This document shows, one piece after another, positions 5,639 through 30,142 of a stretch of 39,264 nt of DNA. The position numbers and the translations under genes are program-made. The notes under the pieces are model-generated. The model worked only from the letters and a program-made list of their open reading frames with translations. It searched no databases and was not told the origin of the DNA. This DNA is from Sandaracinaceae bacterium. GTDB lineage: Bacteria > Myxococcota_A > Polyangia > Polyangiales > Sandaracinaceae. The stretch lies in the NCBI GenBank assembly GCA_044220955.1, contig JBGAQA010000061.1, forward strand, positions 1 to 39,264, written 5' to 3'. Position 1 is the stretch's first letter. Every line of letters begins with the position of its first letter.

Positions 5639-5649
5639 GGCAGTCTCGG

Positions 5650-6372
5650 TCAGGGGCGGCTCTCGCGGGTGGTGTCCGCGGCGGCGGGCGCGACGTTCTT
5701 CGCGGCCGCAGGACCGACGTTCTTCTGCAGCGTGCTCAGCACGGCCTCGAGGATCGGCTCGGCTGCCATCGCGGCGTAGAGCTCCTTGCGAGCGTAGAAC
5801 AGCCGGGTCCGGACCGTGAGCACGGGGGCTCCGACGAGCTCGGCGATCTCCTTGGCGGGCATTCCCTCGAAGTCGTGCAGGACGATGACCTCGCGCTTCT
5901 TGTCACCCAGCTGATCCAGCAGCCGGTACAGCACGCGCACCCGCTCGCGCTGCTCGGAGAGCGATTCCGGGTCGTCGCGCCGGGCGTCCTGCTCGCTCGC
6001 GACGTCGGGCACCTCCACGTCGGCGAAGCGGGGCCGAGAGCGGCCCTTGCGCAGGTGCATCCGGGCCACGTTCACGGCCAGCCGGTAGAGCCAGGTCGAG
6101 AAGCGCGAGTCACCGCGGAACGTCGGCAGGGAGCGGTAGACGTGGAGGAAGACCTCCTGGACGACGTCGTCGACGTCGGGGGAAGGGCCCAGGAGCCTGT
6201 AGACCACACGGGCGACGTCCTGGCGATGGGCGCGGAAGATCTCGCGAAACGCCGCGGCGTCGCCAGAGAGAGCCCTATCGATCAGCGCGCGCGCGGGATC
6301 CATGCGTCGGGCGGCCTCGCGGCTTTCGGCCGTGGCCGAGGTGGGGAATGCGATCGAGATCGACGATAACAT
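5650..6372 (-). CDS. ECF RNA polymerase sigma factor (sigma-24 type)
   Basis: GDAAAFREIF, DVDDVVQEVFL, FRGDSRFSTWLYRLAVN, and region 4 KREVIVLHDFEGMPAKEIAELVGAPVLTVRTRLFYARKEL. Start set at ATG 6372 (GAGAGGTG upstream); alternative ATG at 6303. Confidence 0.93.
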   Translation of the reverse strand: MLSSISIAFPTSATAESREAARRMDPARALIDRALSGDAAAFREIFRAHRQDVARVVYRLLGPSPDVDDVVQEVFLHVYRSLPTFRGDSRFSTWLYRLAVNVARMHLRKGRSRPRFADVEVPDVASEQDARRDDPESLSEQRERVRVLYRLLDQLGDKKREVIVLHDFEGMPAKEIAELVGAPVLTVRTRLFYARKELYAAMAAEPILEAVLSTLQKNVGPAAAKNVAPAAADTTRESRP

Positions 6373-6430
6373 GGCACCTCTCGCTCCCCATCCGTTGCGG
6401 CGGCCCGGGTGTGCGTTCAGTGACGGAACG

Positions 6431-6460
6431 AAAAAGGCCACGTCGCTGCGGGACGTGGCC
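6431..6460 (-). terminator. Intrinsic terminator downstream of the Cys-rich lipoprotein gene
   Basis: On the minus strand, GGCCACGTC-CCGCAGC-GACGTGGCC followed by TTTTT (9-bp stem plus U-tract). Confidence 0.85.
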
Positions 6461-6497
6461 GTCTTCGTCGCGACGCCGGCGGGACGCCGGCCGCGAA

Positions 6498-7193
6498 TCA
6501 GCGCGCCGTGGGCACGAACGGCTCGGTGCCGTGGCCGCACATCGTCTGGGCCTCCTCGACGGTGCCGTAGAACCAGGAGAGGCCGCAGTGACCGACCGCG
6601 CCCGTGGTGGCGCAGGGCGTGGTCGCCCAGGTACCGCCGCCCGTGGTGCACGCCTCGCCCGTCGAGGCGAGCTGCGCCGGATCCACGATGTACTCGTTGC
6701 ACCGGGCAGGCGTCGCCGTGGTGCAGCTCCCGTCCGCGCGCTCGTGCAGCGGCGGGGCCACGGCGCTCGCCGCGCTCGCGTCGGACAGGTCGTAGAAGTG
6801 CATGTGCTCCGGGCACGCGGCCTGCGCGGACGCCACGTTGGCCGTCGGGCCGTAGAACCAGGTGTTGGTGGAATCGCCGCACCACGCGATCGCCGTGTCG
6901 CCGCCCGGGCAGATGCCGTCCGACCAGCGGCCACCCTGGGCCTCGCAGTCCGTCCGCGCCTGCGTTCGGCCCTCCTCGTTCAGCGCGCGGAGCACCTCGT
7001 GACAGACGCCCTGCGCTTCCCGCATGCAGCTGCCGTGTGATCCGGCGTGCAGACCGTGCGGCCCCTCACCGCGCTCACCGCCGCCCGTCGGATGATCGCC
7101 GCCACCGCCACCGCTGCTGCTGCTGCCGCTTCCGCCGCCACACGCGAGCAGCGTTGCGATCGCGAGCGCGCTCACCCAAACGTTCTTCCTCAT
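6498..7193 (-). CDS. Cys-rich lipoprotein with two internal repeats
   Basis: Signal peptide with lipobox (MRKNVWVSALAIATLLA-C), Gly/Ser linker, and two ~75-aa repeats of the form GSC..C.E...C...GG.W...C.......C....WFYG....AQ..C. GGAGG RBS upstream. Confidence 0.8.
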   Translation of the reverse strand: MRKNVWVSALAIATLLACGGGSGSSSSGGGGGDHPTGGGERGEGPHGLHAGSHGSCMREAQGVCHEVLRALNEEGRTQARTDCEAQGGRWSDGICPGGDTAIAWCGDSTNTWFYGPTANVASAQAACPEHMHFYDLSDASAASAVAPPLHERADGSCTTATPARCNEYIVDPAQLASTGEACTTGGGTWATTPCATTGAVGHCGLSWFYGTVEEAQTMCGHGTEPFVPTAR

Positions 7194-7504: not shown

Positions 7505-8509
7505 ATGATCGAGGTCGAGGGCCTGACGAAGCGGTACGGTCTGCGCACGGCGGTCGACGGGATCTCGTTCTCGGTCGAGAAGGGCGAGATCGTGGGGTTT
7601 CTGGGGCCGAACGGCGCCGGGAAGAGCACGACCCTGCGCATGCTGACGGGGTTCCTCGCCCCGAGCGGGGGCACGATCCGGATCGACGGGATCGACATGC
7701 TCGACAAGCCGATCGAGGCCCGCCGCCGGATCGGCTACATGCCCGAGGCGTGCCCGCTCTACCCGGAGATGCGGGTGGTCGAGTACCTGCGCTACCGCGC
7801 CGAGCTCAAAGGCGTCCCGGGCAAGGACATCGGTCGTCGCGTGGACGCCGCGCTCGGGCAGGCCAGCGTGACCGAGGTCGCCTCGCGGATCATCGGGCAG
7901 CTCAGCAAGGGCACGCGGCAGCGGGTGGGCCTCGCCGACGCGCTGGTCGCCGATCCACCGCTCCTGGTGCTCGACGAGCCGACCGCGGGGCTCGATCCCA
8001 ACCAGATCCGGCAGGTCCGAGATCTGATCCGGGGATTCGCCAAGACGAAGACCGTCCTGCTCTCCACGCACATCCTCCCGGAGGTCGAGGCCTCGTGCGA
8101 ACGGGTGGTCATCATCCACAAGGGGCGCGTCGTGCAGGAGGGCTCGCCCGACGAGCTCAAGGCGCCGCCGGCGCGGGAGCGGGCGTTCGTGCTGCGCAGC
8201 AAGGCCAGCGGCGAGGCGCTCGGCAAGGCGCTCGGGGGGATCGCTCGCGGGTTCGAGAGCAAGACCGACGCGGACGGCGTGACGCGCGTCGTCGTGCGGA
8301 TCGCCGACGGCGAGGATCTCGCGGAGCGGATCTTCGAGGCGGTGGCGGGCGCGGGCCTCACGCTGCGTGAGCTGACCGAGGCCAAGGGCGCCTCGCTCGA
8401 GGACGTGTTCAGCCTGCTCACGCACGGGGACGCGGCGAAGGCGAACGACGCCGAGGACGACGACGACGCGGGCTCGAGCGCGAGCGACGACGCCGAGGAC
8501 GACGAATGA
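7505..8509 (+). CDS. ABC transporter ATP-binding protein (GldA-like)
   Basis: Walker A GPNGAGKST, signature-like LSKGTRQR, Walker B LVLDEP, GLDPNQI, and H-loop STHILPEVE. Acidic C-terminal tail. Confidence 0.95.
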   Translation: MIEVEGLTKRYGLRTAVDGISFSVEKGEIVGFLGPNGAGKSTTLRMLTGFLAPSGGTIRIDGIDMLDKPIEARRRIGYMPEACPLYPEMRVVEYLRYRAELKGVPGKDIGRRVDAALGQASVTEVASRIIGQLSKGTRQRVGLADALVADPPLLVLDEPTAGLDPNQIRQVRDLIRGFAKTKTVLLSTHILPEVEASCERVVIIHKGRVVQEGSPDELKAPPARERAFVLRSKASGEALGKALGGIARGFESKTDADGVTRVVVRIADGEDLAERIFEAVAGAGLTLRELTEAKGASLEDVFSLLTHGDAAKANDAEDDDDAGSSASDDAEDDE

Positions 8510-9261
8510 AGGCCATCTGGACCATCGCGAAGCGAGAGATCGTCTCCTTCTTCGTCTCGCCCCTGGCCTACGTCGTGATCACGACGTGGCTGCTCTTCCA
8601 GGGCGCCACCTTCTGGGTCATGTCGTTCTGGTACTCGCAGCAGGATCTCGGCTCCGGAAGCTCGGGCGCGAACCCGCTGAGCCACTACTTCGGCGGGACC
8701 ACGCTCTTCTACATCCCCATCATGGTGTACACGCCGCTCTTGACGATGCGCCTTCTCGCCGAGGAGCACCGTCAGGGGACGATCGAGGCGCTGCTCACCG
8801 CGCCCGTGTCGGATGCGGCGGTCGTCCTCGGCAAGTACCTCGCGGCGCTCGTCTTCTGGGTCACGCTCTGGGTGCCGACGCTCATGTACGTCTGGCTGAC
8901 GAGCCGCTTCGGCGACCTCGACCTCTGGAAGATCGCGGCGACGTACGTCGGCATCTTCGGGCTCGGTGCGTACTACATGGCGCTCGGGCTGCTCATGAGC
9001 GCGCTGACGCGCAGCCAGATCACCGCGGCCGTGCTGACGTTCATCGCGCTCGGCGCTTTCTTCATCCTCGGCCTGCTCTCGTTCCTCGTGACCGACGACT
9101 CCATGCGCAGCGTGTTCGACTACATGAGCCTCTGGACGCACATGAGCACGTTCGCGAGCGGCATCGTCGACAGCCGCTACTTGACGTACGAGCTCTCCCT
9201 GGCCGCCCTCGGAGTGTTCCTGAGCATCCGCGCGCTCGAGGCACGGAGGTACGAGGCGTGA
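8506..9261 (+). CDS. ABC-2 type permease (GldF-like)
   Basis: IAKREIVSFFVSPLAY, PLLTMRLLAEEHRQGTIEALLTAPV, VVLGKYLA, several TM segments. ATGA overlap with the ATPase gene. Confidence 0.93.
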   Translation: MKAIWTIAKREIVSFFVSPLAYVVITTWLLFQGATFWVMSFWYSQQDLGSGSSGANPLSHYFGGTTLFYIPIMVYTPLLTMRLLAEEHRQGTIEALLTAPVSDAAVVLGKYLAALVFWVTLWVPTLMYVWLTSRFGDLDLWKIAATYVGIFGLGAYYMALGLLMSALTRSQITAAVLTFIALGAFFILGLLSFLVTDDSMRSVFDYMSLWTHMSTFASGIVDSRYLTYELSLAALGVFLSIRALEARRYEA

Positions 9262-10877
9262 GCAGCGAGCGAAAGGACGGTCCGAAGAACCGCGCGCCGG
9301 AGGCCGCCGCCACCAAGCCGCCGGAGGACGCCACGAGCGCCCGGCGTCTGGCGGGGCGCGCCAACGTCTTCGCGTCGGCGCTGATCGTCGTCCTGATCGC
9401 GCTGATGGCGAACTACCTCTCGTTCCGCCACTACCATCGGTGGGACTGGACGAGCGAGGGCCTCTTCACCCTCTCCCCGCGCACCCACGAGCTCCTCACG
9501 GGCCTCACGACCGACATCGACGTCTACATGGTCCTCTCGTCGGGCGAGTCGAACTACCAGGACGTACGCGAGCTCCTCGAGCGCTACCGCGCGGAGAGCC
9601 AGCACGTCGTGCTGCACTACGTCGACCCGGATCGCGAGCCGAGCGAGTACCAGATGATCGCCGAGCGCTTCGGCCTCGCGCGCGCGATGCTCGCCGACGG
9701 TAGCGAGGCGGCCGACGTCGCGCTCGTGATCGTCAACGGCGATCGCCAGTGGAAGATCACCCGGGACGACCTGGTGAGCATCGACTTCGATCCCTCGGGC
9801 GAGGGCGGCGATGCGCACGTCGACGTCCGCAGTGAGCAGGCCATCTCGGGGGGCCTGCTCGAGGTCACGAGCGGCCGCGCCACGCACGTGTGCATCACGA
9901 GCGGTCACGGCGAGTGGACGCTCGATCGCGGCACCGAGCGCGACCTCGGTGGCCTGCGCGACGAGATGCGGCGGGAGAACCTGGAGGTCGAGCAGATCGA
10001 GACGCGGGGGCGTACGGTCCTCCCGGACACGTGTGACGCGACCTTCGTGATCGGGCCGAGGTCCGCGTTCACCGCCGAGGAGGCCACGCTGCTCCGCCAC
10101 TACGTCGAAGGCGGTGGCCACCTCTTGCTCGCCATCGATCCCGAGATCGACGGTGGTGAGATCCGCCCGAGCGGGCTCGAGTCGGTGCTGCGCGAGCTCG
10201 GGATCCGCCTCGACAGGACGATCGTGCTCGAGATGGACGAGCACCACCTGTTGCCGAGCCAGCCCTCGCCCACCGGCCCCTTCCTGGTGGCCAGCTACGG
10301 CGAGCACCCCATCACGAGCGCCTTCGCGTCGCTCGACCTGCCCATGGTCGTGAACCTCGTGCGCTCGGTGCGGCCCGCGGACGAGAGCGAGGCGACGACC
10401 ATCCTGTCGGCGAGCGAGAGCTCGTTCGCCGAGACCGACATCGCGCTCCTGGTCCAGACGATGGAGCCGCATCGGGACGATCAGGACTACCCGGGGCCCG
10501 TCTCGCTCGGCGTCGCGCTCGAGGTGCCGCGCCACGGCGATGCCGCGGACGACGGCGATGCCGCGGACGACGGCGATGCCGCGGACGACGACGCCGCGCG
10601 GTCGCCCGGGCGCATCGTGGTCATCGGCGACTCGGACTTCCTCGCCTCCGAGCTCATCGCCACGCGTGAGGTCATCAACTACGAGCTCGCGAGCGCCATC
10701 CTCGGCTGGCTCACCGCCCGGCAGGCCCTCCTCGAGGTGCCGCCGCGACGCATGACCTCGCGGCCCGTGCAGCTCACCGAGAGCGACGTGCTCGACCTGG
10801 GGTTCCGCGTGCTCGTGCTGCTGCCGCTCGCCTCGGTCTTCCTCGGGATCGCCGTGTGGTGGAACCGTCGCAGTTGA
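9258..10877 (+). CDS. ABC transporter auxiliary component (GldG-like)
   Basis: GTG at 9258 overlaps the permease stop (GTGA). N-terminal TM, RWDWTSEGLFTLSPRT, VDPDREP, ITSGHGE, RIVVIGDSDF and a C-terminal TM. Confidence 0.88.
   Translation: MSSERKDGPKNRAPEAAATKPPEDATSARRLAGRANVFASALIVVLIALMANYLSFRHYHRWDWTSEGLFTLSPRTHELLTGLTTDIDVYMVLSSGESNYQDVRELLERYRAESQHVVLHYVDPDREPSEYQMIAERFGLARAMLADGSEAADVALVIVNGDRQWKITRDDLVSIDFDPSGEGGDAHVDVRSEQAISGGLLEVTSGRATHVCITSGHGEWTLDRGTERDLGGLRDEMRRENLEVEQIETRGRTVLPDTCDATFVIGPRSAFTAEEATLLRHYVEGGGHLLLAIDPEIDGGEIRPSGLESVLRELGIRLDRTIVLEMDEHHLLPSQPSPTGPFLVASYGEHPITSAFASLDLPMVVNLVRSVRPADESEATTILSASESSFAETDIALLVQTMEPHRDDQDYPGPVSLGVALEVPRHGDAADDGDAADDGDAADDDAARSPGRIVVIGDSDFLASELIATREVINYELASAILGWLTARQALLEVPPRRMTSRPVQLTESDVLDLGFRVLVLLPLASVFLGIAVWWNRRS
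10536..10589. repeat. 18-bp tandem repeat x3 (GGCGATGCCGCGGACGAC; GDAADD)
   Basis: Three exact units at 10536, 10554 and 10572, inside the GldG-like gene. Confidence 0.9.
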
Positions 10878-10890
10878 GGGTCGCGGGGAC

Positions 10891-13149
10891 ATGAGCAAGC
10901 GGACCACGATGGTGCTGGGCGGGATCGCGGTGGCGATGCTCGCGTACATCCTGATCTTCGAGCAGGGCTCGCTGACGACGGGCGAGCTCGACGCGCGGCG
11001 CGGGCGCGTCATCCAGGCCTTCGTTCGCGCGCGCGTGACGCGCCTGGAGCTGAACGCGGGCACGACCCACGTCGTGCTGCAGCGCGCCGAGGACGAGGGC
11101 GAGGAGACGCTCGACACGTTCGGCGTGGGCGACTGGTCGCTCGAGGCGCCGGTCCACGCGCCCGCGGACAGCGAGTCGGTCGATGGGCTGATGTCGACGC
11201 TCGAGTGGCTCGACGCCCGGCGCACGCTCGAGGGGATCAGCGACGACGATCGTCGGCGCTTCGGCCTGGAAGAGCCGCGCGCGACGGTGGACTTCACGGT
11301 CGCGGGAGAGTCGCACCGGCTGCTCGTCGGCGGTGACGACCCGCGGGGGGAGGGGCTCTACGTCACGCTCGGCGAGGGCGACACGGCGTGGATCTGCGGC
11401 CGCGACCTGCTCGAGGCGCTTGAGCACGACGCCGACCACTTCCGGAACAAGGATCTCTTCCATCACTTCCGGGCGCGTGACGCCCGGCGGGTGGAGATCA
11501 CCAACGCGGACACGCACGTCGTGGCCGAGCGCTCGGGCGCGGACGGCCACGCCGGTCCCTGGGGGCTCACGGAGCCCGTGCACGGATACGCGCGGACCGC
11601 GGGCATCGACGGGCTATTGCAGTTCGCGACGCACGCGCGCGCGACGCGCTTCGTGATGGAGGAGCCCGGTCCGGACCTGGCTCCGCCGACGCACGAGCTG
11701 CGCATCGCGCGGGCGCCCGCCCCGGACGGGGCGACGGGCGACGAAGCGGAGCGCTCGCCGATGCGCCTGCGCGTGATCGGTCCGTGCCCGGACCACGACG
11801 ACGAGCGGCTCGCGGTCGTGAACGAGGGCCCCGTCGTCTGCATCCTCGCCAGCGACGTCGAGCCGCTCGACGTCTCGCTCGATCGCTTGCGTGAGACGCG
11901 GCTCGTCTCGACCCCGGACGACCGGGTCGAGTCGATCACGATGGGCCACGGCGACGGCGCGTTCACGATCTCGCGCGTCGAGGGGGGCTTCCGCATCGGA
12001 GAGGGCGACGCCGCGGTCGACGCGGACGACGACGCGGTCGGGGAGCTGATGGAGGCGCTGCGTGGCCAGGACGCCCAGGAGCTGGTCCCGGTGACCGACG
12101 CGCTGCTCGCGGAGCACGCGCTGACGACGCCGGCGGCCGTGCTCACCATCGCGCGCACCGACGACGCGGAGCCCGAGATCGTCTCGTTCGGCGCCGCGGA
12201 CGCGGTCGGCATCTGGGTGCGCCGGGGCGACGAGGCGCAGATCGGGCGCTTCGACCTGCGCGCGCGCGACCTCGTCTGGCGAGATCCCGTCTCCTTCCGC
12301 CGGCGGCGGCTCGTCGAGCGGGACGCGGACGACGCCACGCTCGTGAGGATCACGCGCGGTACCGCGGTGGAGGCCGTGACGCACGGGGACGAGGGCTGGC
12401 GCCTGACCGAGCCGAGCGCTCTCGTCGCGGACGACGGCGCGGTGCGCGACGTCGCGCGCGCGATCGCCGGGCTCAGCGCGCTGCGCTTCGTCTCTGCGGC
12501 CGCTGCGCCGGAGCACGCGCTGGATCACCCGCGCTACGTCGTGTCGGTCCACTTCGCGCAGACTCACGGCGACGACGACCACGGCGACGACGACCACGGC
12601 GACGACGACGGCGAGGCGGCGCACCGCGAGGGGCCGCTCGAGCCGACGCTCCACGTCGGCGCGGCCACCGAGGGCGGGGCGTTCGCGACGCTCGGCGACG
12701 ACCCCGCGGTCTTCGTGGTCGCGTCGGCGCTCGTCGACGCCATCGCGCGCCCGCTCGTCAGCCGCGATCTGCTCGCGGTGCCGAGCGGTGACGTCAGCGC
12801 GCTCGCGATCACGGGTCCCGCGGGGACCGTCTCGCTGCGCGAGTCCGGCGACGCCTGGGTGACCGACCTCGGGCCCGCGGCCACCGGCCCGACGACCGCG
12901 ATGCTCGACCGGCTCGCGAGCCTGCACGCGAGCGGCGTCGAGCCCTACGGCACCGCGATGCCCGCGCCCGTGATCACGATCGAGGCCACGCACCGCGCGG
13001 CGGGATCGGCGGCGACACGGATCGAGATCGGTCCCGTCGTCGTCGGGACCGAAGGCGCGCCCTACCGCCTGGCGCGCGTCACGGGCGTGCCCGTGGTCTT
13101 CCGCTTGCAGGACGCGGACGCGACCGCGTTTGCCGACTATCGGCCCTGA
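10891..13149 (+). CDS. DUF4340-type membrane-anchored protein with multiple repeats (752 aa)
   Basis: N-terminal anchor, then recurring W.L.EP....AD...V..L...L units and FGLEEPRATV. Follows gldA/F/G-like genes, the usual context for this family. Confidence 0.8.
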   Translation: MSKRTTMVLGGIAVAMLAYILIFEQGSLTTGELDARRGRVIQAFVRARVTRLELNAGTTHVVLQRAEDEGEETLDTFGVGDWSLEAPVHAPADSESVDGLMSTLEWLDARRTLEGISDDDRRRFGLEEPRATVDFTVAGESHRLLVGGDDPRGEGLYVTLGEGDTAWICGRDLLEALEHDADHFRNKDLFHHFRARDARRVEITNADTHVVAERSGADGHAGPWGLTEPVHGYARTAGIDGLLQFATHARATRFVMEEPGPDLAPPTHELRIARAPAPDGATGDEAERSPMRLRVIGPCPDHDDERLAVVNEGPVVCILASDVEPLDVSLDRLRETRLVSTPDDRVESITMGHGDGAFTISRVEGGFRIGEGDAAVDADDDAVGELMEALRGQDAQELVPVTDALLAEHALTTPAAVLTIARTDDAEPEIVSFGAADAVGIWVRRGDEAQIGRFDLRARDLVWRDPVSFRRRRLVERDADDATLVRITRGTAVEAVTHGDEGWRLTEPSALVADDGAVRDVARAIAGLSALRFVSAAAAPEHALDHPRYVVSVHFAQTHGDDDHGDDDHGDDDGEAAHREGPLEPTLHVGAATEGGAFATLGDDPAVFVVASALVDAIARPLVSRDLLAVPSGDVSALAITGPAGTVSLRESGDAWVTDLGPAATGPTTAMLDRLASLHASGVEPYGTAMPAPVITIEATHRAAGSAATRIEIGPVVVGTEGAPYRLARVTGVPVVFRLQDADATAFADYRP
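12565..12609. repeat. 15-bp tandem repeat x3 (CACGGCGACGACGAC; HGDDD)
   Basis: Exact units at 12565, 12580 and 12595. Confidence 0.9.
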
Positions 13150-22505: not shown

Positions 22506-23057
22506 CTACCCGCGGGCGGACGCGTAGTTGAGGCGGACGATCAGGAACACGAAGCCCGCCACGATCAGCACCGCCATCGCGATCCCGCCGGCGAACAGTG
22601 GGGAGTCCGAGAGCGGAGTGAGGCCGAACTGGCCGTCGTACTGCGCGAAGGTTCCCGCCACCGAGAGCCGCTCCCGGAGCAGCGCCGGTACGGCCGCGCC
22701 CAGGATGACGGCGGCCGCGATCACGCCGCCCGCGACCGCCTCGCGCTGCGAGCGCAGGAGCGCCGCACCGGCCGAGAAGCCGAGGGCGCCGATCCCCACC
22801 TCGAGCACGAATCCGACCAGGGCGATGGCCGAGGGCACGCGCTGCACGTCGAAGAGGTAGAGCAGGAACCAGTCGCCGTGGAACACGTAGAAGTACACGC
22901 TCGCCGGGACGAGCACGAGGCACGCGAAGAGCAGGTACGCGCCGAAGGCGGTCGTCAGGAACGGATGCCGCGGGCTCAGGCGCAGCTCGCCGCGCCCGGC
23001 GAGCGCAGCGGCGACTCCCGTCGCGAACGCGATGCTGATCAGCGTGGGCAGCGGCAC
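22506..23057 (-). CDS. Hypothetical integral membrane protein (about 5 TM, 183 aa)
   Basis: Start set at GTG 23057 (MPLPTLISIAF...), with TATCTT 6 nt upstream. Multiple hydrophobic segments and a YFYVFHGDWFLLY motif. Confidence 0.8.
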   Translation of the reverse strand: MPLPTLISIAFATGVAAALAGRGELRLSPRHPFLTTAFGAYLLFACLVLVPASVYFYVFHGDWFLLYLFDVQRVPSAIALVGFVLEVGIGALGFSAGAALLRSQREAVAGGVIAAAVILGAAVPALLRERLSVAGTFAQYDGQFGLTPLSDSPLFAGGIAMAVLIVAGFVFLIVRLNYASARG

Positions 23058-23079: not shown

Positions 23080-26000
23080 TCAGCGGACGTCCACCGGCAT
23101 CTCGTCGCGCGCCTGGATGCTCGGCGAGGCGCGCGTGAGGACGTCGACCTCGACCGCGATGTCGAGCTCGCGGCCGGAGATCGAGCCGTGACAGCCACCG
23201 CAGAGGCCGTTGAAGAAGCCGCGCGGGATCGACTGGCGGCCGTGCTCGCCGGGGTAGAACTGCACGGCCTCGCGCTGAAGGATCTCGCCGGTGAACAGGC
23301 CCCCGGTCGGGAACGTCAGCGGGTGCCCGTCCCGGTCGGTCACGCGGAGCTGCACGGATGCTCCACCCCGCACCTGGATGTGGGCCGATCCGTCGTCGGC
23401 GAGGTCGACGTGCCCGGCGACGCGCCGCGAGACGAAGAACTGGCCGAAGGCGTCCGTCATCACCGAGCTGGCGATCGATCCGTCGCCGAAGCTGGTGACA
23501 CCGTCGGGCGGCGCCAGCGACTCGAGCACGTCGAAGCCGCCGATCTGCGGATCGATCAGGCGGCCCGTCCGACGGTTCGCGAAGAGCAGGGTCGCGATGA
23601 GCGGTAGGTCGGCGTACAAGATGACAGCGTCCTGCTCGCCGGGGTGGACCTCGGTGTGACCGTTGGCCTCGAAGAAGCTGCTGACGAAGACGTCGTGTGG
23701 CTCGCGCGCGAAGACCGCCACCGCCTCGACGTTCGCGCCGGTCCCGCCGCCGATCTCGGTGACCGTGCCGGCGTCGGGATCGATGTCGCAGAGCCGGAAG
23801 TCGAAGGGACCGGTCGTGAGCGAGGTCGCGGCGAGCGCGCAGGAGGCGACCAGGTGTCCGTTCGGGAGCGGCGCCGGCGAGCGGAACGCGCCCGCGCCAG
23901 CCGGTCCGACGGTCCCGAGCGCGCTCGGCACGGGGAAGAGCATGGAGTGGATGAACTGCCGGTCCGTCGGGTCGCGATCGTCCTGATCGGGTCCGATCGA
24001 GCGGTTCACCAGGACGATGGTGCCGGCTCCGTCCGCCGCGTCGAGCGGGGCGGCGACGATGGCGAGGTTGCGGTCGAGCATCTCGACGATCTCCGTCGCG
24101 CTGCGGAACCCCACGCTCTCGCGCTGGGCGAAGAGCGGGTGATAGTCGCCTCCGTCGAGGTTCAGGCGGCGCCCCGCGAGCTGGTGGAACTCGAGGTCGC
24201 GCTTCTCCGCGGTGAAGATGAGGCGGCCGTCGCCCATGAAGGAGGGCTGCATCTCCTGGTTCAAGAGGAAGGTCAGCTGACGCAGGCTCCCGTCCGCGTC
24301 GCGGACGTAGAGGTTCGCGTTCGGCGCCAGGCTCGCCGGCGTGCGTGTCGGCCCCAGGCGGCCGATGGCGTGGTCGGTCAGGTAGCCTCGCGTCGAGGTG
24401 AACACGAGCCGGCCGTCGGGCGCGAAGGCCGGGTCGAAGTCGTGCAGCAGGATGCCGCGCTCCGTGTCGGTCGCCGGGGCGATGCCCGGGATCGGGGCGC
24501 AGCCGCTTCCGTCCGCCGCCACCTGGTAGAGGCGGTACGGGGCGCTGGCGCTCGTGCGCGCGGCGAACGCGATCGAAGTTCCGTCCCAGGTCGCGGCAGG
24601 TCCGCGGATGTCGGCGGCGCCTGCGGGGAAGCCGCAGCCGGCGGCGAGGTCGCGCTCGCCCCCGAGGGCGAGCGGCGCCGTGCGCGAGAGCGTCGCGTCG
24701 GCGATGCGGAGGGAGGCGCCCGGCCGGTACGTGTCGAAGTCGTCGGGGCGGCCGACGCCGCTCGGGCGATTGACCCACACGAGCGACGAGACCGAGTGAG
24801 CGGTGTCGACGCCGGGATGGACCGCCGCACGCTCGATCTCGTGCCAGCGCGTGAAGATGCAGTACGCGGGGATCGTGTCGAGGTCCCCCGTGCGATCCAG
24901 CTGGTCGTCCGTGTACGCGTCGCAGTCCGAGGGCGTCGCCGCGTGCGGGGTTCCGTCGGCGTTCAGGCCGAAGTCCTCGAAGAGCGAGCCGCCGCGGTGC
25001 GCGAGACCCATGCCTCCCGCCACGGACGAGTCGGGGAACAGGTTCTTCGCGATGAGCCGGCTCTCGTTCGGGTTCTCCGCGTCCACCGCGAGCAGCGCGC
25101 GCGCGATCTCGTAGTTACGGATCGTCGCGAGCCGGCCGAAGTGACCTCCTGAGCCGCCCCGCAGCCGGAGATCGTGGAACATCGAGGGCGAGTGGCAGTT
25201 CAGGAACATGCAGCCCTTGCGGACCATCACCGGCTGGACGCGGTTGGCGAAGAAGCGCAGGCCCGCCGCGTCGTAGCCGGGCGGCACCACCGGGGCGACA
25301 TCCGTCGGGGTCAGGGACTCGGCCCAGTGGAAGATGGCCGCGTAGCGCGGGTCCGTGGTGCTCGGCAGGACGGTGCCGCCCTCGTGGAACGTGCCGCCGC
25401 GATCCTTGGCCAGCGGGCGGCGCAGCAGCTCCGAGACCGACACCGACTCGCTGACGAACTGCATCGAGACCCAGTGGTTCCAGTGCAGCTCTTCGGGCGT
25501 GTCGCCGCAGCTCAGGTAGAGGTCGGCGGCGCGTCGGCCGTGGCAGACCTCGCCCGCACAAGTCGTGCGCAGCACCGGCTGCACCTGCGCGAGGAACTCG
25601 GCGTAGTCGGGCCCGGGCGCGGCGGCCGGATCGTAGCCGGGGGCCGAGCCTGCGCCGCTCGTGCACGGGCCCTCGCTGACGCGCAGCTCCGTGGGCGGTG
25701 AGCCCGTGCGCGTGTGCCCGTTGCGCACCCACTGGCTGATGAGCGAGAAGCCAGCCGTCCCGAGATCGACCGTCGTCCCGCCTGCGTGCCGGATGTCGGT
25801 CGTGACGTCCACCGTGCGCATCTCGAGCGGCAGGCCGTCGCTCTCGCCGAACGTCTCGACGTGGATCGTCACCGGCTGGCCCGGCTTCATGAGCAGCAGC
25901 GGGAGCGGGTAGGGGCCGTAGGGCTCGAGCACGTCGCCGCGGCGCATCAGCGCGTCGAACGACGAGATGTCCAGGTTGCCCGCCGACGTTCCCTCCGGGG

Positions 26001-26196
26001 TGGAGAGGTGGCAGCCGGTGTTCTGGCGGACGCAGCTCGTCGTCAGCCCGGGCTGGATGTTGTCGTCGTAGTACGAGCCTGCCGGCAGATCCTGCGCCTC
26101 GCACCCGCCGAGCGCGAGCGCGAGCGCGCCCGAGAGCGCCCACATCCAGCTTCGCTTTTGCGTGGGCGCGGAGCGCGCCGAAGAGCGGAGCAACAT
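23080..26196 (-). CDS. Multiheme c-type cytochrome lipoprotein with hydrazine-synthase-alpha-like beta-propeller/middle domains (1038 aa)
   Basis: Lipobox LALALGG-C. Heme-like motifs CVRQNTGCH, CAGEVCH, CMFLNCH and CGGCH. TolB/PD40-like repeats (HDFDPAFAPDGRLVFTSTRG, QLTFLLNQEMQPSFMGDGRLIF). C-terminal LADDGSAHIQVRGG...QFYPGE...CGGCH, as in HzsA-related proteins. Confidence 0.85.
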   Translation of the reverse strand: MLLRSSARSAPTQKRSWMWALSGALALALGGCEAQDLPAGSYYDDNIQPGLTTSCVRQNTGCHLSTPEGTSAGNLDISSFDALMRRGDVLEPYGPYPLPLLLMKPGQPVTIHVETFGESDGLPLEMRTVDVTTDIRHAGGTTVDLGTAGFSLISQWVRNGHTRTGSPPTELRVSEGPCTSGAGSAPGYDPAAAPGPDYAEFLAQVQPVLRTTCAGEVCHGRRAADLYLSCGDTPEELHWNHWVSMQFVSESVSVSELLRRPLAKDRGGTFHEGGTVLPSTTDPRYAAIFHWAESLTPTDVAPVVPPGYDAAGLRFFANRVQPVMVRKGCMFLNCHSPSMFHDLRLRGGSGGHFGRLATIRNYEIARALLAVDAENPNESRLIAKNLFPDSSVAGGMGLAHRGGSLFEDFGLNADGTPHAATPSDCDAYTDDQLDRTGDLDTIPAYCIFTRWHEIERAAVHPGVDTAHSVSSLVWVNRPSGVGRPDDFDTYRPGASLRIADATLSRTAPLALGGERDLAAGCGFPAGAADIRGPAATWDGTSIAFAARTSASAPYRLYQVAADGSGCAPIPGIAPATDTERGILLHDFDPAFAPDGRLVFTSTRGYLTDHAIGRLGPTRTPASLAPNANLYVRDADGSLRQLTFLLNQEMQPSFMGDGRLIFTAEKRDLEFHQLAGRRLNLDGGDYHPLFAQRESVGFRSATEIVEMLDRNLAIVAAPLDAADGAGTIVLVNRSIGPDQDDRDPTDRQFIHSMLFPVPSALGTVGPAGAGAFRSPAPLPNGHLVASCALAATSLTTGPFDFRLCDIDPDAGTVTEIGGGTGANVEAVAVFAREPHDVFVSSFFEANGHTEVHPGEQDAVILYADLPLIATLLFANRRTGRLIDPQIGGFDVLESLAPPDGVTSFGDGSIASSVMTDAFGQFFVSRRVAGHVDLADDGSAHIQVRGGASVQLRVTDRDGHPLTFPTGGLFTGEILQREAVQFYPGEHGRQSIPRGFFNGLCGGCHGSISGRELDIAVEVDVLTRASPSIQARDEMPVDVR

Positions 26197-26292
26197 GGTC
26201 GGAGAGTACCTCGTGCGAAAGGGCCATCGAAGACGAAAACGGCCCGCGGTCGCCCGCGAGCCGTCTGCGTCGAAAGGAACCGTGAGGACGGC

Positions 26293-27222
26293 TCAGCGAC
26301 CGAGCGCGTTCTCGATCGCGTCGCGCACGAGCGACTCGCGCTCGCTCGACGCGGCCGCCGTCAGCGCCGTCAGCGCGTCCGACCCGCCGATCTGCCCGAG
26401 CGCCCACGCCGCCGCCTGACGCGCGCCACGATCGGTGTCGCCCGTGAGCATCGCGGCCAGCACCGGCACGGCGTCCGCCGCGCGCAGCGCGCCGACCACG
26501 TTCGCCGCGTGACGGCGGAGCGACGCGTCGCTCGACGCCAGCAGCGGCAGGACCGCCGCCGTGTCCGAGAAGAAGTTGACGCGCAGGATGATGCTCACGG
26601 CGGCGAGCTGGACGGACGCGTCCGAGTCGCGCAGCGCCATCGAGATGAAGGGCAGGCCCGTCGACGCGTTGATGCGCGCGATGCCGCGGACGGCCGCCGC
26701 GCGGACGTTGGCGGCGGGGTCGCTCGAGATCGCCGTGCCGAGCAGGTCCACGCCGTGCGGATCCATGAACTCGCCGATGGCGGCCGCCGCGCGCTCGCGG
26801 TGCGTGGCCGTCTCCGACATGTTCGTCAGCACCGCCGTCATGTCGTGCATGACCGCGCCGAACCCGAGCGGGCGCCGGCGGAGCCACCAGGCCGCGAGCT
26901 CGCGGACCGTCGGATCCGGGTCGTCGAGGATCCGTCGCTCGAGCAGCGGGATGCACGCCGTGCACTCGACGCGCTCGCCGTACTCGAGCATCGAGGCGAT
27001 CTGCGAGGGCGCCGCGCTCGAGTTCAGCATGGCCTCGAGCGAGTCCGCCGAGGGTGCCTGCGTGTGCGGCGAGAGCTCGCCGCGAGTCTGGTCGAAGGCG
27101 CGGAACACGCACCCACCACCGGTCTGGTCGTACTGCTGCCCGCCGGGGCAGGTCTGCGCGCTCGTGATCGCGGGGACCGCGAGGACGGCGCTGGCGAGGA
27201 GGATGGTCTGCAGGGTCTTCAT
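26293..27222 (-). CDS. Secreted HEAT-repeat protein with a CxxC motif (309 aa)
   Basis: ATG 27222 with AGGAG RBS. Signal peptide MKTLQTILLASAVLAVPAITSA, VECTAC, and HEAT repeats (DPDPTVRELAAWWL, DPAANVRAAAVRGI, DRGARQAAAWALGQIG). Confidence 0.88.
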   Translation of the reverse strand: MKTLQTILLASAVLAVPAITSAQTCPGGQQYDQTGGGCVFRAFDQTRGELSPHTQAPSADSLEAMLNSSAAPSQIASMLEYGERVECTACIPLLERRILDDPDPTVRELAAWWLRRRPLGFGAVMHDMTAVLTNMSETATHRERAAAAIGEFMDPHGVDLLGTAISSDPAANVRAAAVRGIARINASTGLPFISMALRDSDASVQLAAVSIILRVNFFSDTAAVLPLLASSDASLRRHAANVVGALRAADAVPVLAAMLTGDTDRGARQAAAWALGQIGGSDALTALTAAASSERESLVRDAIENALGR

Positions 27223-27244
27223 GGTGTTTCTCCTGTGTTCCTTC

Positions 27245-29515
27245 TCAGAAGCCCGCCGAGTCCCACATCGGGTCGACGTTGAACCGCGAGTAGTACTGGC
27301 CACCGAGGTCGGCCATCTGGATGAGCATCGCGCGGTCCTCGGGGGACAGCGTCACGCCCATGTCTTCGGGGTGCATCGGGGTCGACCACGCGTGCACCGA
27401 CGGGTCGTCGGTCGCCGCCACGTTGACGCTCGCGATGAGCTGGCTGCCGCGCGCGTCGCCGGGCGCGACCCAGATCGGCGGCATCTCACCCGTCACCGTC
27501 GCGTCCATCATGGCCGACGGGTAGAGGAGCGTGACGTACGAGGCCGGGTACGAGCGGACCTCGCGCTCGTAGTAGACCTCGATGGGCGCCGCATCGAGCT
27601 GGAGCCACGGGATGTCGTAGGCCAGCATCTGGCCCGTCATCGTCGTGACCTCGACGTGGTAGGTGCGCTGCGCGAGGGTGCTGCCCGCGCCGTGGCAGCT
27701 GACGCAGTTGTCGTTGAAGACGTCCTGCATCGTGCGGTGCGAGGGCGCGCCGTACCACGGGAGCTCGCGGCGATCGGCGATGCGCGAGAAGGTGCCCATG
27801 AAGGGCGGGTTCTGCTGCGCGATGGTCTGCGGGACGCCGCCGCGCGGCAGGACCGAGCCCGAGCGCGAGCTGTGGCAGCCGCCGCACTCGCGGCTCTCGC
27901 CCGGCATCGCCTGGATCCACAGCATCTGGTTGCGGATGGCCATGCCGAACCGGTCGAGGGGCTGCAGGTGGACCGGCGTCATGCCGGGGATCGCCGCCCG
28001 CCAGCTGCCGTCCGTGTTGACGGGCACCTCGCCCAGGATCGCCGCGCCCTCGTGCATCGTGAGGCCGAACATGCCGACCGCGCCGATCTCCGACGAGAAG
28101 CCCTCGACCACGCGCACCGCGCGCGTCTGCAGGAGCGCATCGTGGAGAGGCATGCCGCGGAGCGCCGCGCCCTCGACGCCGCCGATGGTCTCGTAGCCGA
28201 GCGAGGTCTCTGCCACGTCCACCGCGCCGATGATGGCGGGGCGCGTCGCGAGCTCTTCCGGCGTGCCGCTGACCGTGCGCGGGATGACGCGCGGCTCGAC
28301 GCGGGGCGCGACCGGGATCGCGTAGAGGTCCCACATGTCGGGATCGTCGTAGACGAGCGTGCGCTGGTCGGGGACGTTCGGGTCGAACATGTAGATGCCG
28401 AACTGCGGCGCCGTCGCGGCGAGCTCGTTGCGGTCGTTGACGTCGCCGTCCGACCACGAGACCAGGAAGTCACCCGTCGGGACCATGTGGCCGTCCTGCA
28501 TCAGCGAGATGCTGCGCGGGTTGCGGTAGCGGCCCACGCCCGAGGGGGGCGACTCGCTGCCCGTCGGAACGGCGGGCGTCCAGTTCAGGAAGCGCGCCTG
28601 CTGCACGTCGATGCGCAGGCCGTCCGTGCCGGTCGCGGCGCGCGCGTCGATGCGCATGACGGCGCCCGACTGGATCGTGCGGCTGCGGCTGGTGCCGATC
28701 GCGACGAACACGCCGGGCTCGATCTCGCTCGCCTGGACGATCGAGTTGAAGTCCTTGTTGAACTGGCCCGCGATGGCCTCCATGCCCGAGCAGTCCGGGT
28801 TCATGCGGAAGAGCTTCACGTCGTTGACCGGGCCGAGGTGCTCCCAGCGCGAGTAGCCGATCTGGCCGTCCGAGAGGAGGAAGGGGTCGGCGGTGTGCGA
28901 GAGGTTCTGCGAGCAGACCGTCGGGTCACCGCCGTCGAGCGAGACGACCGCGATCTGGGTGACCTCGCGCGAGTGCTCGTACTCGTCGGCGCGCGTGCCG
29001 AGCGCCGTGTACGCCAGGTTCGTGACGTACGCGATCTGGCGCCCGGGCGCGTAGATGGGGCGGATGTCGTCCTGGTCGCCGAAGGTGACCTGGTGCACGT
29101 CGCCCGTGCCGTTCACGTTCGCCGTGTAGATGTGGTAGTGGTCGTCGCCACCGTCGTAGCGCATCGAGAACACGACCTGGTTCGCGTCGAACGAGAGGTC
29201 GAGGCCCGCGATGTCGACGCCGTCGAAGTTGCGCGTGAGGTTCGTGAGCGTCCCGTCCGGCGTCGGCGGCGAGAGCACGAACACGCCGCCGGGGTGCTCG
29301 GCCGTGCCGGGCGTGTAGCGCTGGTAGTCGATGACCTGACGCGAGCCGCCGCTGATGTCGTGGCTCAGGTCGGGTCGCTCGAACGCGCGCTGCACGAAGA
29401 CCACGGCCTCCACGCCCGGCAGCACGCCACCTTGGCTGCCGCCCGTGCATCCCGGGAACGCTGCGGCGAGACCGAGGGCGAGCCCGAGGGCTACTACCTT
29501 CTTCTGCGTCGTCAT
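27245..29515 (-). CDS. Hydrazine-synthase-alpha-like diheme c lipoprotein (756 aa)
   Basis: ATG 29515 with AGGAG RBS and lipobox AFPG-C. Propeller repeats (DLSFDANQVVFSM, QVTFGDQDDIRPIY, PFLLSDGQIGYSRWEH, FRMNPD). Middle domain ILGEVPVNTDGSWRAAIP...LQPLDRFGMAI...WIQAMPGESRECGGCH, then a second motif CVSCH. Confidence 0.88.
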   Translation of the reverse strand: MTTQKKVVALGLALGLAAAFPGCTGGSQGGVLPGVEAVVFVQRAFERPDLSHDISGGSRQVIDYQRYTPGTAEHPGGVFVLSPPTPDGTLTNLTRNFDGVDIAGLDLSFDANQVVFSMRYDGGDDHYHIYTANVNGTGDVHQVTFGDQDDIRPIYAPGRQIAYVTNLAYTALGTRADEYEHSREVTQIAVVSLDGGDPTVCSQNLSHTADPFLLSDGQIGYSRWEHLGPVNDVKLFRMNPDCSGMEAIAGQFNKDFNSIVQASEIEPGVFVAIGTSRSRTIQSGAVMRIDARAATGTDGLRIDVQQARFLNWTPAVPTGSESPPSGVGRYRNPRSISLMQDGHMVPTGDFLVSWSDGDVNDRNELAATAPQFGIYMFDPNVPDQRTLVYDDPDMWDLYAIPVAPRVEPRVIPRTVSGTPEELATRPAIIGAVDVAETSLGYETIGGVEGAALRGMPLHDALLQTRAVRVVEGFSSEIGAVGMFGLTMHEGAAILGEVPVNTDGSWRAAIPGMTPVHLQPLDRFGMAIRNQMLWIQAMPGESRECGGCHSSRSGSVLPRGGVPQTIAQQNPPFMGTFSRIADRRELPWYGAPSHRTMQDVFNDNCVSCHGAGSTLAQRTYHVEVTTMTGQMLAYDIPWLQLDAAPIEVYYEREVRSYPASYVTLLYPSAMMDATVTGEMPPIWVAPGDARGSQLIASVNVAATDDPSVHAWSTPMHPEDMGVTLSPEDRAMLIQMADLGGQYYSRFNVDPMWDSAGF

Positions 29516-29568
29516 TGAGTGTCTCCTCTTCCTCTGTGCCCGGACGGAGGCCCGGACGCGCGGTCCGT

Positions 29569-29585
29569 TGCAAGCGAGGATCCAG
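29569..29585 (-). promoter_or_regulatory. Putative sigma54 (-24/-12) promoter of the HzsA-like cluster
   Basis: Minus strand reads CTGGATCCTCGCTTGCA, which has GG-N10-GC with TTGCA, about 55 nt upstream of ATG 29515. Two core positions deviate from TGGCAC. Confidence 0.6.
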
Positions 29586-29836
29586 CCGGGAATACACCGG
29601 CGAGCGCTCAATTCACGACCGATCCGTGGGTAGTCGGACGGCGCACATCGGTGCGGGTGGGGGCGACCGGCCCCGACGACCCAGGCGTCTGGGGGCCATG
29701 GCAGCCATCACAGCGTGAATGTCGGATACGCGAACACACGGTCACGGTCCCGGCCGGATCGCCGACGGTTCTCGCAAGATCTCCGCGAGATCACGGGAAA
29801 GGTGACCCGGCACGGGGCTCGCTATGGAATTCGATC

Positions 29837-30142
29837 GTGCAGCTCCTCGGACTCTTGCTGGCCCTCGCGAGCGGGCCCCGGTGGATCGACCACGCTCCGC
29901 GCCTCTCGCTCGAGCTGCGCGCCCTCGCGCCGGTCGCCGCCGCCACGCCGGAGATCGAGACGCTCGGCGAGATCCTGTCGCGCGGCGTCGTGCTCCCGGC
30001 GCAGCTGCACCTGGGGCTCGACGGCCAGCCCTCGATGCCCTTCCTGAGCCCGTTCTTCTACGCGCAGGAGATCCGGAACACCCAGGTCGACCCGCTCGCG
30101 CTCGCGGGCAGCCTGATGATCACGGCGCGCGTCGAGCTCTGA
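29837..30142 (+). CDS. Small hypothetical protein (101 aa), hydrophobic N-terminus
   Basis: 3' half of ORF 29519..30142 has coding-like GC3 from GTG 29837 (MQLLGLLLALASGPRW...MITARVEL). Confidence 0.6.
   Translation: MQLLGLLLALASGPRWIDHAPRLSLELRALAPVAAATPEIETLGEILSRGVVLPAQLHLGLDGQPSMPFLSPFFYAQEIRNTQVDPLALAGSLMITARVEL

Follow-up and report, generated by a model that had tools for sequence, protein, structure and literature searches.

HzsA-fold haem proteins A and C with a predicted HEAT-repeat partner B: a Polyangia gene triad co-inherited with an additional Glt-like gene set

Hydrazine synthase, the Agl-Glt core complex, and the DUF3570 flavinylation clusters are the closest described systems to the genes studied here. 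In the alpha subunit of hydrazine synthase, HzsA, Tyr591 is a ligand of haem alpha-I, and zinc is bound by the His of the motif (PMC12758564; bioRxiv 2023.01.22.525020). Non-anammox homologues described by Hagglund et al. 2025 (PMC12758564) have a two-residue gap at Ser590/Tyr591; in the portions of that paper used here, their haem pocket is inferred to be canonical, their function is given as unknown, and eight Polyangia rows appear in the HZS-A BLAST table. Luciano et al. 2011 (PMC3169522, likewise cited from parts of the text) described the Agl-Glt core complex as a unit of unknown function outside myxobacteria, with paralogues that serve non-motility roles such as Nfs. Excerpts of Meheust et al. 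2021 (PMC8238504) name [S/T]GA[S/T] as the DUF3570 flavinylation site and leave the function of “DsbD systems” open. Here, we describe three genes, A, B, and C, in a 39,264-nt stretch of a Sandaracinaceae bacterium genome (contig JBGAQA010000061.1 of assembly GCA_044220955.1, positions 1 to 39,264), hereafter called the window. A and C are relatives of HzsA, and B is a HEAT-repeat protein. New here is the observation that this triad tracks one particular GltC-like paralogue and DUF3570 in Polyangia.

The triad consists of three co-oriented minus-strand open reading frames (ORFs) separated by 22 nt (A-B) and 96 nt (B-C), in agreement with an earlier reading of the window made from its letters alone (the sequence-only reading), which had three co-oriented, closely spaced genes of 756, 309, and 1038 aa with export signals for all three. 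Those signals were again read from the sequence, without a predictor: Cys23 of A and Cys32 of C are lipobox-like, and the N-terminus of B is signal-peptide-like. GC content at third codon positions (0.92-0.95) is of the coding type, and the genes are real ORFs, not chance frames. Their motifs are not chance either, because the haem Cys/His residues and the CxxC of B are near-invariant across orthologues. For gene C, a Met at 26145 may be the true start instead. Upstream of A, a sigma-54-type motif is present in 30 of 44 loci, where shuffles predict 1.7, and the genome background is 171 of 3583 genes; the search pattern, with three alternatives, was composed after sight of the window copy. The interval marked by the sequence-only reading ends, at 29585, on this motif. 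By layout and motif, A, B, and C form one predicted operon behind a conserved, putative sigma-54-type promoter. Three metatranscriptomes (sludge or wastewater) contained 5-9% of the words, with short contigs matching A, B, and the downstream gene D, two of them spanning the A-B junction; these contigs give no strand and do not establish that one transcript spans the genes, and we draw no conclusion from them. The closest named relatives of A are in Sandaracinaceae genomes (83-89% identity); therefore, the host is a Polyangia myxobacterium. The window genome is 88% complete.

A synteny survey showed strict conservation of the triad in Polyangia. At 15 named loci, B follows A in 13/13 with room on the contig, and C comes next in 11/11 with room. 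Another 20 loci were picked around C matches in other families, and 18 of these have A-B-C; the other two gave no gene calls. Loci L029, L046, L055, L068, L085, L092, and L192 were uninformative for lack of gene calls and were left out. B was never seen without an upstream A where the contig allowed, C lies apart from A-B at L041 and L047, and six loci have a solo C paralogue in varied contexts. C orthologues occur in 105 genomes of a 251-genome sample of the class (107 matches minus G245 and G249, which are paralogue-level). At E 1e-20, A was found in 13 of 201 genomes of a phylum sample, all within Polyangia. A cultured carrier is Sandaracinus amylolyticus (DB32_002433-002435). In 12 loci, a DsbD-thioredoxin gene is divergent from A.

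The distribution of the triad is matched by that of a GltC-like paralogue. Across the 251 Polyangia genomes, 103 have both the C orthologue and this paralogue and 145 have neither, with C only in 2 and the GltC-like gene only in 1. A and the GltC-like gene occur in the same 13 genomes of the phylum sample, and a hand count among 41 relatives gave both in 28, A only in 2, the GltC-like gene only in 1, and neither in 10. One 99%-complete relative is without both genes, while two congeners carry both. TIGR04565 barrels are present in 248/251 genomes; therefore, no tracking of the triad is seen for Glt-type barrels as a whole. Their copy number does separate carriers in Polyangiales, with three copies in 13/14 carriers versus 0/29 others. 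DUF3570 is found in 105/105 C carriers versus 63/146 others and, within family f67, in 27/27 carriers versus 2/15 others.

The genes of the co-inherited set are clustered. In family f67, the operon order is barrel-barrel-x-GltC-like-TPR1030-GltE-like-small-GltG-like-x-CglE-small cytochrome-SH3-DUF4266-DUF3570. Eight genomes of this family were fetched, and in six of them the C end of the triad is 0-2 called genes from the DUF3570 end of the Glt-like operon, with the other two within ~10 kb. Model matches place GltC/E/G-like genes and outer-membrane barrels in one cluster, and CglE (70.8 against a cut-off of 70) and TIGR04565 exceed their cut-offs. GltD and GltF are labels given by position; neither had a model match. 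The linked DUF3570 copies have the [S/T]GA[S/T] motif in the nine printed, and the copy on contig C133 of the window genome reads SGAS. In this genome, clear homologues of the Glt-like operon genes lie on six other contigs (C229, C275, C279, C122, C133, and C222), and DUF3570, DUF4266, and ApbE (contig C232) are present in trans, none adjoining the triad. Of three Glt-like sets in the genome, at C166 19038-39945, C253 9724-22565, and C229 49301-56320, only the last tracks the triad. A five-CxxCH gene and an oxidase-like cluster lie ~5 kb from the C253 set; the C166 set, with a 3373-aa TPR-like gene, is presumably the better candidate for gliding. The Agl-Glt gliding machinery in the strict sense powers motility and has GltI/J/K and CglB among its parts.

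This near-perfect co-inheritance, which lies outside the window and was missed by the sequence-only reading, speaks for an envelope machine and not for a nitrogen enzyme that acts on its own. A functional link of some form between the triad and the Glt-like set is probable.

Protein A has the full HzsA architecture of propeller, middle haem domain, and C-terminal haem domain. Its profile aligns with HzsA (5C2V_A) over the greater part of the protein (E 1.2e-22), and the top Foldseek match of its model is HzsA (E 6.9e-26, TM 0.62), at a predicted local distance difference test (pLDDT) score of 81.8. Protein C has the propeller and middle domain without the C-terminal haem domain; its profile match to HzsA is weaker (E 6.8e-11), and its model (pLDDT 81.6) also has HzsA as the top Foldseek match (E 6.7e-23). 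A phmmer search of C against PDB sequences gave no match, the relation being visible by profile only. The HzsA-like architecture that had been proposed for both proteins is therefore borne out by profiles and models. As for family models, A passes Pfam HZS_alpha (PF18582) with 55.1 bits against a cut-off of 26.6, and C falls below it with 17.2 bits, although some C orthologues pass (27.9); PD40 matches C only, not A. Both proteins carry the DGS...PGE...CGGCH segment after the propeller, just as the sequence-only reading had it. A and C are homologous over propeller and middle domain (99.8% in profile comparison) and are, on this sequence evidence, paralogues. The propeller site of A is conserved (D177-E178-Y179, N204-x-S206-H207, and W224-x-H226). 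VIA-align of the whole A and C models returned propeller matches only, and these were TolB-like (Z 25-26).

The count of two and four haem c motifs held for A, which has two canonical CxxCH motifs (544 and 604). In C, a single motif is canonical (CxxCH 999), and the other three are widened (CX6CH 55, CX4CH 213, and CX4CH 329). The haem Cys/His residues are invariant in 44/44 A orthologues and in 41/41 C orthologues, except for C motif 1, which is present in 38/41; the other three gene calls begin downstream of it. The spacing in C is 6 or 8, then 4, 4, and 2 in 38/41 orthologues. CX4CH takes the place of CxxCH at the second haem site of A in 2/44 orthologues and in several distant relatives, which supports our reading of the widened CXnCH motifs as haem sites. 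Each widened motif lies in a repeat and is followed by an invariant H-x-G-G (His137, His271, and His400), from which we infer that the repeats hold bis-His haems. Homology is clear between repeats 2 and 3 (98%) and weak for repeat 1 (56-79%). Look-alikes of this part of C in the Atlas include a cluster with Cytochrom_C on 28% of its members, which is a lead only. CcmF-like and CcmC-like genes, named from sequence motifs, are present in the window genome. Taken at sequence level, A and C very probably carry covalent haem. His715 of A is invariant (44/44) and ~4 residues off HzsA His772 in the alignment, making it a candidate distal ligand of the second haem.

Protein B matches HEAT repeats in Pfam and has the invariant motifs E-x-x-E-x3-CxxC and R-x4-WW. 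A complex of A (32-750) and B (45-309) was predicted with a score of 0.90 versus 0.00 for the best control; the score mark used is reached by 116/157 solved pairs and 2/215 mismatched pairs. The runs agree on at least 89% of contacts, the partner pLDDT is 91, and the interface comprises 238-254 contacts. In the model, B caps the conserved propeller face of A. The predicted interface involves invariant E80, E83, C87, W112, and R117 and residues 83-89 of B, and, on A, conserved propeller loops (Y179, N231, and R277) and loop 475-487. PDB searches gave no similar solved complex. The suggestion that B is a bound partner gained support from this prediction, and we consider it highly likely that A and B bind.

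Distant relatives of A were also found in comparable gene company. A hidden Markov model search with A reached 11,517 representatives. One distant family of ~980 aa is colinear with A (hhalign 100%, E 1.3e-76, 663 columns), shares its D-E-Y-E, N-x-S-H, and R-W-x-H motifs, matches HzsA at E 2.5e-32, and has an extra C-terminal domain that matches repeat 2 of C (97%). Its operons were surveyed in 39 of 78 metagenome loci, those of at least 12 kb. Neighbours in these 39 loci include ApbE (36), DUF3570 (36), an SH3-barrel protein (36), a TIGR04565 barrel (34), TlpA (32), a small cytochrome-like lipoprotein (30), and DUF4266 (20), as well as TPR genes of ~630 aa (33) and ~940 aa (29). A plasmid search with a distant relative gave partial SUMF1-type fusions only.

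We read these observations as follows: A-B-C would be the haem-containing redox part of an additional Agl-Glt/Ton-like machine in the Polyangia envelope, one that includes a thiol-flavin-haem chain, and we give this reading a probability of about one half. In such a machine, A would receive two haems and C four from the Ccm system once exported, and both proteins would be lipoproteins anchored in the outer membrane. B would cap the propeller face of A, in place of the beta subunit of hydrazine synthase, whose role is described in part of PMC12758564; this placement is our own. Electrons would enter from the inner membrane through DsbD/thioredoxin-type thiols, pass to DUF4266 or the CxxC of B, and reach flavinylated DUF3570. 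From there they would flow through the small CXnCH cytochrome and the three bis-His haems of C to His-ligated alpha-I-type haems under the propellers. These haems would reduce or modify a substrate that is carried across or along the outer membrane by a proton-motive-force-driven assembly of GltG/C/D/E-like proteins and barrels. As the substrate, a component of the envelope or surface seems to us more likely than an inorganic nitrogen compound. A broader and more doubtful proposal is that a widespread form of the Agl-Glt core links proton-motive force with a thiol-flavin-haem chain whose last members are catalytic haems of the HzsA fold, with the split, HEAT-capped, six-haem A-B-C as its Polyangia version. 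If true, hydrazine synthase would owe its alpha subunit to the redox head of an energised machine in the envelope.

Several results weigh against the envelope-machine reading. All links between triad and Glt-like set are genomic, and given the kinship of the genomes, the co-inheritance represents perhaps a dozen gain/loss events, not 251. Furthermore, the GltC-like alignment was made from 12 of the 103 double positives, whose matches are thus built in, and the GltC-like cut-off of 1e-60 could hide divergent orthologues in triad-negative families. The eight f67 genomes were chosen since they had barrel and C matches on the same contig. Where triad and Glt-like operons are adjacent, they are convergent and not co-transcribed, and Glt-like clusters from other families had no complete triad beside them in 4/4 genomes. 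Shared sigma-54 control was looked for upstream of 12 first barrels and not found, with 0 credible motifs and one match inside a called gene. The GltC-, GltE-, and GltG-like scores are under the NCBIfam cut-offs, no AglRQS-type motor was seen among recurrent families of the fetched Glt-like clusters, and none of the five MotA/ExbB matches over cut-off in the window genome was assigned to the Glt-like set. DsbD is not adjacent to A in the window, and the 40 most frequent ORF families in the distant operons include no HEAT family.

Other explanations account for parts of these data. A, B, and C could be a stand-alone periplasmic redox enzyme under sigma-54, acting for example on peroxide, nitric oxide, or hydroxylamine, with the Glt-like match due to shared lifestyle or a co-transferred island. 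The HzsA fold with its conserved propeller site, a promoter of its own that is not common to the Glt-like genes, the lack of linkage between triad and Glt-like set in most families, and the varied contexts of solo C paralogues all fit such an enzyme; just three discordant genomes among 251, the like gene company around the distant relatives of A, and the lack of nitrogen-cycle genes among annotated neighbour families do not, and we regard it as unlikely, if still a serious candidate. The triad could also belong to the Glt-like machine with haems that play a structural or sensory part, as a switch for redox state or gas or in a chaperone-like role, and not a catalytic one. In M. xanthus, TfcP offers an example of a cytochrome c put to a new use (PMC8833165, cited from part of the paper). 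Such a role would fit the same co-inheritance, the TolB-like propellers, and the covering of the conserved face of A by B in the model. TolB serves a Ton/Tol motor. Six conserved haem motifs together with a small cytochrome, a CxC protein, TlpA, and a flavinylation substrate nevertheless resemble an electron-transfer chain, and we rate structural or sensory haems as a quite improbable account. A narrower proposal concerns B, which might be a dedicated maturation factor for the widened CX4CH/CX6-8CH motifs of C; we take its combination of a CxxC and a helical solenoid to resemble CcmH/NrfF-G. Its invariant CxxC with HEAT repeats, its export, its constant presence in the operon, and DsbD nearby in 12 loci would suit a maturase. 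But B stays with A, whose motifs are canonical, where C is detached (L041 and L047), widened motifs occur in solo C paralogues and C50-type clusters (described below) without a HEAT gene, the interface predicted with folded A is very large, and B has no CcmH family match, which makes a maturase very unlikely.

The triad could, lastly, be a cryptic hydrazine synthase whose beta-gamma partner is encoded elsewhere, given that HzsA is the best structural match and that the genome does encode a YncE-propeller/dihaem beta-gamma-like protein. This has been largely refuted, and we see next to no chance for it. The profile alignment of A has a two-residue gap where HzsA has Ser590/Tyr591; no Tyr is found among the six residues after the haem motif in 44/44 A orthologues and 41/41 C orthologues. 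A and C also fail NF052339, with 52.3 and 11.8 bits against a cut-off of 800. On contig C50, the beta-gamma-like gene accompanies another HzsA-like paralogue. The stretch around the zinc ligand Cys303 of HzsA is unaligned in the profile alignments of both A and C, and Cys303 is not universal among anammox bacteria according to part of PMC12758564. No HzsB/C-like gene was found by Pfam among the 24 window ORFs scanned, and no beta-gamma gene among annotated recurrent neighbour families of triad loci. This agrees with the sequence-only reading, which saw no such gene in the window. PF13447 (HAO/HDH octahaem) had no match in the window genome, but the control genomes were silent too and the assembly is 88% complete. 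Because Tyr591 and an adjacent beta-gamma gene are missing, A and C are, by profile and predicted model, HzsA-fold proteins and not hydrazine synthase, and the triad probably does not make hydrazine. Chemistry other than anammox, as suggested from the letters, is supported by the missing Tyr591; we found nothing in support of the N-oxide/nitric oxide handling or the developmental role suggested with it.

Table 1. Coordinates of the triad and other features of the window
Feature	Position	Strand	Remarks
Gene A	27245-29515	-	Predicted lipoprotein of 756 aa with a beta-propeller, an HZS_alpha middle domain that carries a haem motif, and a cytochrome c domain at the C-terminus
A haem motif 1, CGGCH 544-548	27872-27886	-	At HzsA haem alpha-I position
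A haem motif 2, CVSCH 604-608	27692-27706	-	At haem alpha-II position
Gene B	26293-27222	-	309 aa, exported HEAT-repeat protein
B CxxC Cys87/Cys90	26953-26964	-	No following His; in 44/44 orthologues
Gene C	23080-26196	-	1038 aa predicted lipoprotein: three N-terminal cytochrome-c-like repeats, propeller, HZS_alpha-like middle domain
C residues ~38-460	24817-26085	-	Three helical repeats with CX6CH, CX4CH, CX4CH
C canonical haem motif CGGCH 999-1003	23188-23202	-	Alpha-I position, no Tyr at +4
Sigma-54-type promoter motif GG-N10-GC	29569-29584	-	54-69 nt upstream of gene A
Gene D	22506-23057	-	~183 aa hydrophobic protein without a Pfam family, 22 nt after C
Short ORF divergent from A	29519-30142	+	Kept in three close relatives, no Pfam match
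ABC transporter ATPase, ABC-2 permease, ABC_transp_aux, DUF4340	7505-13149	+	Consecutive genes
ECF-sigma-like ORF, then zf-HC2/FecR protein	4202-6885	-	First read from sequence; C-terminus of second matches GltG-like profile

Gene D is found behind C in 16 loci and was not seen there in loci from other orders. We therefore rejected it as a core part of the triad and treat it as accessory. Downstream of C and D, Sandaracinaceae-like loci (L048-L054, L057, L063, and L073) often have DUF4398, DUF4398-TSP3-OmpA, a TPR protein, and an AMP-binding enzyme; the DUF4398/OmpA pair of the window genome is on contig C237. In 12 loci, C is followed by a secreted protein, f8, which in the window genome lies elsewhere and has no family match. 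On contig C75 (4514-8464, L174), an f8 orthologue is close to a four-CxxCH protein and to a lipoprotein-like CX4CH cytochrome whose distal motif is of the Met type. The order of the ABC transporter and DUF4340 genes in the window is, we assume, like that of GldA/F/G-type clusters.

Further HzsA-like proteins were seen outside the triad. A solo full-length C paralogue (contig C234 7220-10213, L058; 52% identity, four motifs) has no A or B beside it and adjoins a GMC oxidoreductase. Solo HzsA-like proteins with PSCyt1-like domains occur in Sandaracinaceae-like genomes (L070 8133-11306, L071 6817-11820, L072 1428-4577, and L069 8069-10771), and one of these, of 1667 aa, has a weak C-terminal match to peptidase S9. 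A second HzsA-like cluster, on contig C50 (4793-11798, L059), contains an alpha-like gene, a small CX4CH lipoprotein, DUF4266, DUF3570, a small protein, and the YncE-propeller/dihaem beta-gamma-like gene, with similar sets in L060-L062. It matches the pairing of alpha with beta-gamma presented in PMC12758564 (in the parts cited), plus DUF3570.

Our literature searches found neither the triad operon nor its Glt link, either of which subscription papers and supplements could hold. By term search of the available text, PMC10979944 contains neither, the main text of PMC12758564 never mentions Myxococcota, Polyangia genera, or HEAT, PMC3169522 lacks the word cytochrome, and PMC8238504 has 0 mentions of hydrazine synthase-like proteins. 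The triad joins three puzzles posed in those papers: the non-anammox HzsA homologues (PMC12758564), the Agl-Glt core (PMC3169522), and the DUF3570 flavinylation clusters (PMC8238504). It bears on the origin of hydrazine synthase and on roles of Glt-like motors besides gliding, and its natural CX4CH and CX6-8CH motifs are test cases for haem attachment. Furthermore, it is a warning that HZS_alpha matches in myxobacterial genomes are no evidence of anammox.

Compared with HzsA of Kuenenia stuttgartiensis (5C2V chain A; NF052339; PF18582), A has the same domain order and keeps both CxxCH positions. Unlike hydrazine synthase, the triad has no Tyr591, has lipoprotein-type N-termini, consists of two paralogues instead of alpha-beta-gamma, has a HEAT partner, and is 13-17% identical; C is without the C-terminal domain and adds three N-terminal repeats with widened motifs. 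The homologues of Hagglund et al. 2025 have the Ser590/Tyr591 gap in common with A in the alignments consulted. However, the clades of that paper, as far as its cited parts describe them, are defined by a beta-gamma neighbour, with clade I lacking His772, whereas the triad has no beta-gamma neighbour and an invariant His nearby. The co-inherited set resembles the Agl-Glt core, as outlined in part in PMC3169522, in its GltC-, GltE-, and GltG-like, CglE, and TIGR04565 barrel genes, and differs in adding HzsA-fold haem proteins, the small cytochrome, DUF4266, and DUF3570; in the window genome it is also the third such set, next to two further clusters of Glt-like type. It resembles the “DsbD systems”, in the sections of PMC8238504 cited, in that DUF3570 with the flavinylation motif, DUF4266, TlpA, ApbE, and DsbD are found in like gene company, whereas none of these five genes adjoins the triad in the window. 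The triad is real, strongly conserved, and uncharacterised, and it ties known but unexplained modules together.

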